DNA of 64,000 bases from an uncultured Clostridia bacterium (GCA_944393465.1 CALYAG010000008.1:6990-70989); one strand, 5' to 3'; positions 60,182 through 60,414 are shown, counted from the stretch's first letter. Made by a program: numbers and translations. Notes: generated by a model not told the origin, from the letters alone.

Positions 60182-60210
60182 TTGACAAATAATGTAATTA
60201 AATATAGAAT
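60182..60210 (+). promoter_or_regulatory. Sigma-A-type promoter upstream of the leader ORF and the DGR target
   Basis: TTGACA (60182-60187), a 17-nt spacer, then TAGAAT (60205-60210). Confidence 0.5.
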
Positions 60211-60260
60211 AAAAACGAAAGTTAGAATAAACATTCAAAAGAAATGGGAGAAAATAACAT

Positions 60261-60329
60261 ATGAAAATCGCTGAAACCCTTGCGGCTGTACACACACACA
60301 CACACACACACACACACACACACATGTAA
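60261..60329 (+). CDS. Candidate 22-codon leader ORF MKIAETLAAV(HT)5HM containing the (CA)17 tract
   Basis: GGGAG lies 10 nt upstream of the ATG. The ORF reads the CA repeat as alternating His/Thr codons and stops at 60327-60329, about 30 nt before a terminator hairpin. Coding status is unproven. Confidence 0.3.
   Translation: MKIAETLAAVHTHTHTHTHTHM
60291..60324. repeat. (CA)17 dinucleotide microsatellite
   Basis: 34 nt of perfect CA repeats, read directly. Confidence 0.97.
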
Positions 60330-60360
60330 TTTAATAAACGAAAAAACAAACATAGAAATA

Positions 60361-60414
60361 AAAAAGCTATGCTTATTAAACAGTGCAAAAATTGCTTAAT
60401 AGGCATAGCTTTTT
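60361..60414 (+). terminator. Strong hairpin terminator between the leader ORF and the DGR target gene
   Basis: 19-nt arms aaaaagctatgcttattaa / ttaataggcatagcttttt (1 mismatch) with a 16-nt loop. The 3' arm ends in T5. Confidence 0.6.

Follow-up and report, generated by a model that had tools for sequence, protein, structure and literature searches.

Slippage within long, perfect simple sequence repeats (SSRs) switches bacterial surface structures reversibly and heritably between ON and OFF states, and classical examples of such phase variation are Neisseria opa, Haemophilus lic1 and hif, and the poly-G tracts of Campylobacter. In leader-peptide transcription attenuation, known from Escherichia coli trp and pyrBI, it depends on where the ribosome stands on a leader open reading frame (ORF) whether a terminator hairpin forms. 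Finally, the surface-protein gene cwpV of Clostridioides difficile undergoes phase-variable premature termination in its 5' leader, which is governed by a recombinase-mediated DNA inversion switch and does not depend on translation. The classical SSR examples are listed, and leader-peptide attenuation is discussed, in a study of the Pil1 and Pil3 pili of Streptococcus gallolyticus, where GCAGA repeats in a leader ORF set the length of the leader (Danne et al. 2014, PMC3894217). Short leaders of this system end 39 bp ahead of a terminator and expression is low, whereas expression is high with frame-shifted leaders, which end inside or beyond the terminator. That the ribosome is involved was confirmed with mutants in the start codon, with an added stop codon or in the terminator (PMC3894217). 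Here, we describe a leader of comparable layout in 64,000 nucleotides of DNA from an uncultured Clostridia bacterium (GCA_944393465.1 CALYAG010000008.1:6990-70989; this whole stretch is termed "the window"), in which positions 60182-60421 precede a pilin-like gene that is the target of a diversity-generating retroelement (DGR).

We consider it likely that 60182-60421 constitutes a repeat-controlled leader-peptide transcription attenuator, which gates the pilin-like DGR target by means of a terminator. Slippage of a (CA)17 repeat would probably switch this hypervariable surface-protein gene on and off. Several features that characterize the S. gallolyticus system have putative counterparts in the window, namely a promoter, a Shine-Dalgarno (SD) sequence and a short leader ORF, an SSR inside this ORF, a repeat number that differs among isolates, a predicted intrinsic terminator ahead of a surface-appendage gene and stop codons that depend on the frame. 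In both systems the short leader stops some 30-40 nt before the hairpin (39 bp in S. gallolyticus, 31 nt in the window), and the frame-shifted, long leader stops in or after it. Unlike in S. gallolyticus, the repeat unit is a dinucleotide (CA, TA or AG) rather than GCAGA, one of three frames rather than two of three is predicted to be ON, and the gene downstream encodes a single pilin-like protein and DGR target instead of a sortase-pilus operon. Moreover, the host belongs to an uncultured, low-G+C lineage of gut Clostridia, the leaders of the two systems have no sequence relationship, and those described here, which are known from sequence alone, have a pre-repeat motif that is common to many of them. 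The dinucleotide units, the widespread conserved cassette and the stacking on a DGR target are new compared with the S. gallolyticus mechanism; a literature search retrieved neither a DGR target under an SSR phase switch nor a later extension of that mechanism to other taxa or to dinucleotide repeats.

The remaining systems each share one aspect with the leader of the window. As in classical SSR phase variation, slippage of a long perfect repeat would toggle a surface structure; unlike in the classical systems, it is a separate leader ORF, followed by a terminator, that contains the repeat, and not the structural gene or the interval between the -35 and -10 boxes. The decisive position of the ribosome relative to the hairpin would be the same as in trp and pyrBI, yet the input would be a heritable change of frame instead of the supply of charged tRNA or nucleotides, and no strong antiterminator is evident, the only alternative pairing being the 5 bp of CATAG with CTATG. 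With cwpV, the leader has in common a putative phase-variable premature termination upstream of a Clostridia surface-protein gene, which would be brought about by repeat slippage here and is caused by DNA inversion there.

Architecture of the Leader

The elements of the leader can be read directly from the DNA and are compiled in Table 1. The promoter P1 is, with its score of 11/12, the top sigma-70-like match within 59400-62300. Tandem Repeats Finder reports the repeat as (AC)17.5 at 60290-60324 with 100% matches; it is the sole dinucleotide SSR of the 64-kb window, and a 16-nt AC pattern has 0.00 expected occurrences (100 shuffles). The tract lies wholly within the ORF 60261-60329, and its unit of 2 nt is not a multiple of 3. 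At 17 units the short frame ends 31 nt before the hairpin, and the second frame is closed at 60332-60334. The remaining frame, which is used whenever the number of CA units is divisible by 3, reads CNLINEKTNIEIKKLCLLNSAKIA, crosses the left arm and the loop and terminates with the TAA at 60397-60399 in the right arm. From the end of the repeat to the ATG of the target at 60589 there are 264 nt with intervening stops in all frames, and 174 nt separate the end of the hairpin from this ATG.

The hairpin comprises two arms of 22 nt each, which are 91% complementary and enclose a loop of 10 nt; an A-run lies before the hairpin and TTTTTGTTAT after it. The stem folds with approximately -25 kcal/mol, and the leader as a whole reaches a z-score of -3.3 compared with shuffled sequences. 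A scan of 59000-64000 against Rfam at E<=1 yielded nothing at the leader.

An initial annotation of this DNA had already proposed an attenuator, and its reading is supported inasmuch as every testable prediction at the level of sequence held. The TTGACA-17-TAGAAT promoter, the ribosome-binding site, the ORF at 60261-60329 and the (CA)17 tract at 60291-60324 lie where it had placed them, and the dinucleotide repeat is indeed as foreign to its surroundings as it had remarked. Its short ORF ending about 30 nt before a hairpin at 60361-60414, itself about 175 nt from the target start, agrees with the distances given above, and frame translation confirmed the alternative stop at 60397-60399 inside the right arm. 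A correction is necessary for the third frame, the stop of which had been assigned to 60330-60332 and actually occupies 60332-60334.

Table 1. Positions of the leader elements and of the genes and regions of the DGR locus, counted from the first nucleotide of the window.
Feature	Position	Strand	Remarks
Leader promoter P1, TTGACA-17-TAGAAT	60182..60210	+	11/12 match
Shine-Dalgarno sequence GGGAG of leader ORF	60246..60250	+	10 nt before ATG; read from sequence
Leader ORF, short frame (predicted OFF)	60261..60329	+	22 codons, MKIAETLAAV(HT)5HM and stop
Pre-repeat 20-mer CTGAAACCCTTGCGGCTGTA	60271..60290	+	codons AETLAAV; conserved across leaders
(CA)17 SSR, predicted slippage site	60291..60324	+	perfect; inside leader ORF
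Two offset TAA stops	60327-60329 and 60332-60334	+	close two of three frames just past the repeat
CATAG, right-arm copy complementary to left-arm CTATG	60351..60355	+	conserved; possible weak alternative pairing
Terminator-like hairpin and T-run	60361..60421	+	arms 60361-60382 and 60393-60414
Long leader ORF (predicted ON)	60261..60399	+	CA count a multiple of 3; TAA 60397-60399 in right arm of hairpin
Spacer, terminator to target start	60415..60588	+	174 nt
DGR target gene	60589..61989	+	466 aa; pilin-like N-terminal hydrophobic segment GITLIALVVTIIVLLILAG; C-terminal variable region
Variable region (VR)	61786..61958	+	TR/VR comparison
MutS-domain-I-like accessory gene (MSL)	62194..62646	+	Pfam MutS_I, E = 2.4e-08
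Avd accessory gene	62627..62989	+	Pfam bAvd; NCBIfam DivGenRetAVD
Template region (TR)	63074..63249	+	TR/VR comparison
Start of DGR reverse transcriptase (RT) gene	63667..64000	+	continues past window end; resemblance to L092 RT
Second small MutS-domain-I-like gene	59586..59999	-	divergent from leader promoter; Pfam MutS_I, E = 2.8e-09

According to the proposed mechanism, transcription would start from P1 near 60217, and ribosomes would load onto the leader ORF at 60261. Slipped-strand mispairing would alter the CA count and thereby the frame in which ribosomes exit the tract. At counts such as 17, 11 or 13, which represent two of the three frames, the ribosome would stop at 60327-60334, with 26 nt or more still to go to the hairpin; hairpin and T-run would form, and most transcripts would end near 60415-60421 (OFF). 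At counts such as 15, 18 or 21, translation would proceed across the left arm and the loop and stop in the right arm, such that the hairpin would be blocked and RNA polymerase would continue into the target and perhaps as far as the DGR accessory genes (ON). The allele of the window, with 17 units, would thus be in an OFF frame. We infer from the DNA where transcription starts and terminates, that read-through depends on translation, and the rate at which the leader switches.

Repeat-Length Variation between Alleles

Near-identical loci were found in gut-metagenome contigs via the exact protein of the upstream MSL gene (59586-59999, minus strand). This look-up yielded ten near-identical loci from other gut metagenomes, seven of which span the tract. 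Compared with 17 CA units in the window, these seven loci possess 15, 21, 21, 21, 13, 13 and 11 units, and their flanks differ by a few single-nucleotide polymorphisms. A DNA pattern search added one further ortholog with (TA)4(CA)5. All three reading frames are represented among the alleles, and in the alleles with 15 and 21 units the long-frame ORFs had been annotated by gene callers as genes of 44 and 48 aa, respectively. The initial annotation had suggested counting CA units across related strains, and the counts are polymorphic, not invariant. As judged from these counts, which were taken from assemblies and not from reads, the repeat is hypervariable between strains.

Some loci are of interest beyond their repeat number. 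The contigs L005, L008 and L144 end near the repeat; their coverage is low, and they were not used as evidence of heterogeneity within a sample. In L004, the MSL gene, a (CA)21 leader and the N-terminus of the target are as in the window, the remainder of the target is a 456-aa allele of approximately 53% identity, and other genes (DUF6320) take the place of Avd and RT. This arrangement suggests an exchange of cassettes downstream of a conserved 5' module. A DGR-linked homolog (L013:3850-3990) features the same leader and terminator with only (AC)4, probably a collapsed tract that is locked in the short frame.

Conservation of the Leader Design

Loci were retrieved for homologs of the target with 85%, 70%, 63%, 45%, 44% and 43% identity, and the leader is present at every one of them, including (TA)8-11 versions in homologs of 43-85% identity. 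The closest homolog (L143, 85% identical) has an identical leader start but (TA)8. The loci L092 and L140, on contigs of 1.55 Mb and 395 kb, harbour a syntenic DGR ortholog with the gene order MSL, leader, target, MSL, Avd and RT. Their promoter, leader, stops and hairpin are nearly identical to the window, their target is 45% identical, and their (AC)12 tract is in the putative read-through (ON) frame. The motif equivalent to the offset TAA stops, GTAAnnTTTAAT, is conserved in homologous leaders, and an SD sequence with a start codon recurs in nearly all related leaders.

A scan of species representatives in GTDB produced 80 loci, 583 kb in total, at which uncultured gut Clostridia have pilin-like genes. 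At a threshold of at least 6 units this set contains 17 dinucleotide SSRs, 13 of which fall within 450 nt upstream of a pilin-like match, i.e. in 5.9% of the sequence (binomial probability 2e-13), and two more are located just beyond the 450-nt limit. The repeat-bearing leaders carry (TA)9-11, (AC)8-17 or (AG)11-12, and all of them are composed of a promoter-like site, an SD sequence and an ATG, followed by 8-10 codons before the repeat. This holds also for the leaders of L017/L013, L038/L064, L040 and L076, which exhibit no evident sequence similarity to the leader of the window. Going by these sequences, the predicted device is one that recurs before many surface-protein genes of uncultured gut Clostridia. 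The link to the DGR is not special, as most members of this leader family are found ahead of pilin-like genes other than DGR targets.

The frame design was assessed in 17 leaders by determining the strongest hairpin with a T-run and the first stop codon that each frame meets past the repeat. A single frame has its stop within the hairpin, and the stops of the remaining two lie more than 20 nt upstream of it, in 16 of these leaders, among them the four groups without evident similarity to the leader of the window; L044, the seventeenth, has its long-frame stop approximately 5 nt short of the stem. When the sequence between repeat and hairpin was shuffled with its dinucleotides preserved, this design arose with a probability of 0.004-0.28 per locus, or jointly ~1e-7 to 1e-8 over about eight independent families. 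Another 13 loci, 12 of which came from a metagenome pattern search, gave 9 passes under the strict test and 4 misses by a few nt. The long-frame peptides of different leaders bear no relation to one another, and the long frames run in differing register over conserved nucleotides; therefore, selection appears to act on the act of translation across the hairpin. On the same grounds, unrelated tails in different registers, a functional small protein was rejected as the product of the long frame.

The hairpin, too, is conserved. Its outer stem is kept in 14 homologs, with compensatory changes in 5 of 11 pairs. The sequence ACATAG is retained in all 14 aligned leaders, including L044 with its diverged right arm, and CGTAG variants of CATAG preserve G-U pairing. 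Two-sided covariation of CATAG and CTATG was not observed, because the left arm is invariant. CATAG may serve as a weak antiterminator or have another role.

The Pre-Repeat Motif and Related Cassettes

For an analysis of the sequence before the repeat, 20 leaders were aligned that had been found through the downstream protein and not through the motif itself. In 18 of the 20 the SSR is directly preceded by GAAAC-N-TTG-N5-GTA, which two of the 18, L040 and L072, read in a different frame. The exact 20-mer CTGAAACCCTTGCGGCTGTA occurs at 42 metagenome loci, approximately 25 of which have a dinucleotide tract immediately after it, and these tract-bearing loci differ in their upstream codons and possess variable (CA)n or (TA)n. 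Where a repeat-bearing locus from the motif search extends far enough downstream, the next gene mostly lies on the same strand, and its product is pilin-like, flagellin-like or else membrane-anchored/secreted. L113 (transposase-like) and L128 (RT-like) depart from this pattern, and several contigs end before any gene. The metagenome matches L096, L098, L102, L106/L107, L126 and L127 look like chance or unrelated occurrences, and three matches in viral contigs, none of which is followed by a repeat, were likewise judged unrelated. A small hairpin in the pre-repeat motif is weak and inconsistent (dG 0 to -5.9 kcal/mol).

The motif also occurs together with other arrangements. In seven loci of a higher-G+C gut Firmicute (L095, L101, L109, L119, L122, L125 and L131) the 20-mer lies in a leader ORF and is followed by poly-G (10 or 11). 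All seven leaders are upstream of flagellin-like genes, and one frame crosses the SD sequence to terminate with a TGA overlapping the ATG of the gene, which suggests that translational coupling to the flagellin-like genes is switched by the repeat. In L072:3913-4075, the motif is followed by an (AG)12 tract that belongs to the 5' coding region of the pilin-like gene itself; with its current number of units the frame runs into a stop, and one additional unit would result in an in-frame fusion to GVTLIALVV... Together, these cases suggest a single cassette with three read-outs: override of a terminator, overlap of stop and start codons, and in-frame fusion. We tentatively extend this notion to a portable cassette of gut Firmicutes, in which a conserved element (codons ..ETL(A/G)AV) is joined to an interchangeable TA, CA, GA or poly-G tract and feeds the three read-outs, where the element is a dedicated cis-signal and read-through into the DGR accessory genes is gated; taken as a whole, this extension is conceivable but rather doubtful.

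Alternative Readings

Several points weigh against an attenuator that controls the target. Transcription and translation are only loosely coupled in Bacillus subtilis; still, in view of the precedent in Streptococcus and Lactococcus, the mechanism can work in Firmicutes despite loose coupling. A simple terminator scan did not list the hairpin 60361-60414, because the loop-size and G+C-pair rules of the scan were not satisfied, and the hairpin was called from folding, inverted-repeat detection and covariation instead. The repeat counts derive from short-read assemblies, which may be miscounted or broken at SSRs, and identical counts are found across pairs of samples (12 in both L092 and L140, 10 in both L141 and L142). 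Furthermore, the 174-nt spacer of the window, in DNA of 28% G+C, could accommodate a promoter of its own. The sole promoter match in 60415-60588 is at 60521-60550 and scores 9/12, which is at chance level. In the TA-type paralogs L015, L021, L025, L028, L029, L091 and L093, a block GCAATTAAAAACGATTGCAAA..TATGATATAAC between terminator and gene has a promoter-like structure (TTGCAA-17-TGnTATAAC; termed P2-like) with a small hairpin before it. If this element is a promoter, the attenuator would be only modulatory in these paralogs. The block is shortened in the window (about 60419-60478) and absent in L092. One of these paralogs (L091:2190-2360) has a 13-nt unit, AAAAATACAAAAATR, repeated in tandem in the interval from the leader terminator to the pilin-like gene.

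Alternatively, promoter, leader and terminator might form an independent small transcript, i.e. a phase-variable micro-ORF or a small RNA, with the target being expressed from its own promoter in the spacer and the repeat having little or no effect on it. The unit does have its own promoter and terminator, the spacer of the window is long enough for a second promoter, and the P2-like element of the TA-type paralogs is conserved. Yet, the long-frame peptides are unconserved, contrary to what a functional peptide would imply, the long frame ends within the hairpin at a rate well above chance, the module is usually followed directly by a surface-protein gene in the same orientation, and the P2-like element is shortened in the window. 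Moreover, the terminator is only 35-45 nt away from the SD sequence of the gene in L092, L140, L143, L139, L013 and L017, and therefore there is no room for a second promoter at these loci (in L143 the distance to the SD sequence is about 35 nt, and in L092 and L140 about 40 nt lie between the terminator and the SD sequence and ATG of the target). We thus regard a stand-alone transcript as unlikely. It is quite improbable that the leader frame works by way of Rho-dependent polarity, the stability of the mRNA or a protection of the 5' region by ribosomes, instead of through melting of the terminator. When not translated, (CA)n RNA is rich in C, poor in G and devoid of structure, much like a Rho loading site, and related cassettes seem to employ other outputs, as judged by the stop/start overlap at flagellin-like genes and the in-frame fusion in L072. 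On the other hand, (TA)n and (AG)n leaders share the design and are not C-rich, and the features that are conserved are precisely the hairpin with its T-run and the long-frame stop within this hairpin.

A neutral microsatellite, or a repeat that merely sets the spacing of a promoter and has no leader-peptide role, is the reading to which we give the least credence. A TTG before and a TAnnnT-like hexamer after every repeat bear a superficial resemblance to -35 and -10 boxes, but the spacers implied by these pseudo-boxes measure 26-39 nt against the required 16-18 nt, and the TAnnnT hexamers are in fact stop codons. The repeat begins 80 nt downstream of the -10 box of P1, and a promoter-spacer SSR was rejected for these reasons. 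Neutrality is ruled out by the 2e-13 enrichment upstream of one class of genes in combination with the conserved SD sequence, ATG and frame design. An SSR within the ORF of the structural gene itself was also considered: the repeat of the window is outside the target frame, and a repeat inside the structural ORF is found in the relative L072. The leader-peptide attenuator thus remains the reading that we favour for the window.

The DGR Locus and Its Surroundings

The window has a G+C content of ~28% and the appearance of a bacterial chromosome, with genes for ABC and ZIP transporters; tRNA genes are absent from it. The DGR occupies its final 4.5 kb. TR and VR differ by 25 substitutions at adenines of the TR, and the VR is located at the C-terminus of the target. 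The first 110 aa of the RT are ~90% identical to the RVT_1-containing RT of the syntenic locus L092; a Pfam search with the 111 aa inside the window gave no match. An adenine-specific TR/VR pair together with Avd and RT confirms that the locus is a DGR. In line with other DGRs that include Avd and MSL, it combines these components with a VR at the C-terminus of a surface-type protein; unlike other DGRs, it has a second, divergently transcribed MSL gene upstream. Two small proteins consisting of MutS domain I only thus flank the target, one divergent and upstream, the other between target and Avd. The synteny of the upstream MSL gene (59586-59999, minus strand) is kept in L092 and L140. A connection of the MutS-I-like genes to the repeats was rejected, as MSL homologs were found at DGR loci only (L013, L020, L023, L031, L043, L047 and L092) and are absent at repeat-bearing loci outside DGRs.

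The target is a member of a large family, a homologue search having given 2960 matches. The protein itself had no match in Pfam and NCBIfam, and a fold search of the PDB with its AlphaFold2 model (mean predicted local distance difference test score 75) gave no match at E<=1e-3. It does not present as a type IV (pre)pilin, which would be recognized by an N-terminal class III signal of the form G/(F,M,I)TLxE and by matching N_methyl or TIGR02532: its N-terminal motif is GITLIALVV, with Ala and not Glu at position +5. Given this residue and the absence of a match in Pfam and NCBIfam, the target is named pilin-like only. After its stop codon there is a hairpin at 62050-62080, CCAAGAAGGCCTTAGGTCTTCTTGG, without a T-run; therefore, transcripts from the leader promoter might extend into MSL, Avd, TR and RT.

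Just upstream of the DGR region, the window encodes a protein with RhuM/Fic domains (54326-55270) and a transposase-like protein of the PD-(D/E)XK family (58568-59362). Intergenic tandem repeats at 49191-49302 (35-nt unit x3.2), 24111-24254 (71-nt unit x2.0) and 13271-13367 (44-nt unit x2.2) are apparently unrelated to the leader.

Implications

If the proposed switch operates, a single gene would be subject to two layers of hypermutation, where the DGR rewrites the ligand-binding end of the protein and the microsatellite decides, cell by cell, whether the protein is produced at all. Such bet-hedging would be plausible for gut commensals, which face phages and immunoglobulin A. Should the portable cassette be real as well, its conserved element could represent a nascent-peptide or RNA feature that ensures tight coupling of ribosome and polymerase, or an anchor of the slippage tract, and both diversification and display would be confined to the ON subpopulation. 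Beyond one Streptococcus species, the leader-peptide attenuator switch would, if it operates as proposed, be a common device of abundant, uncultured gut Clostridia, and the ON and OFF states of their surface proteins would become readable from metagenomes by simple sequence rules.

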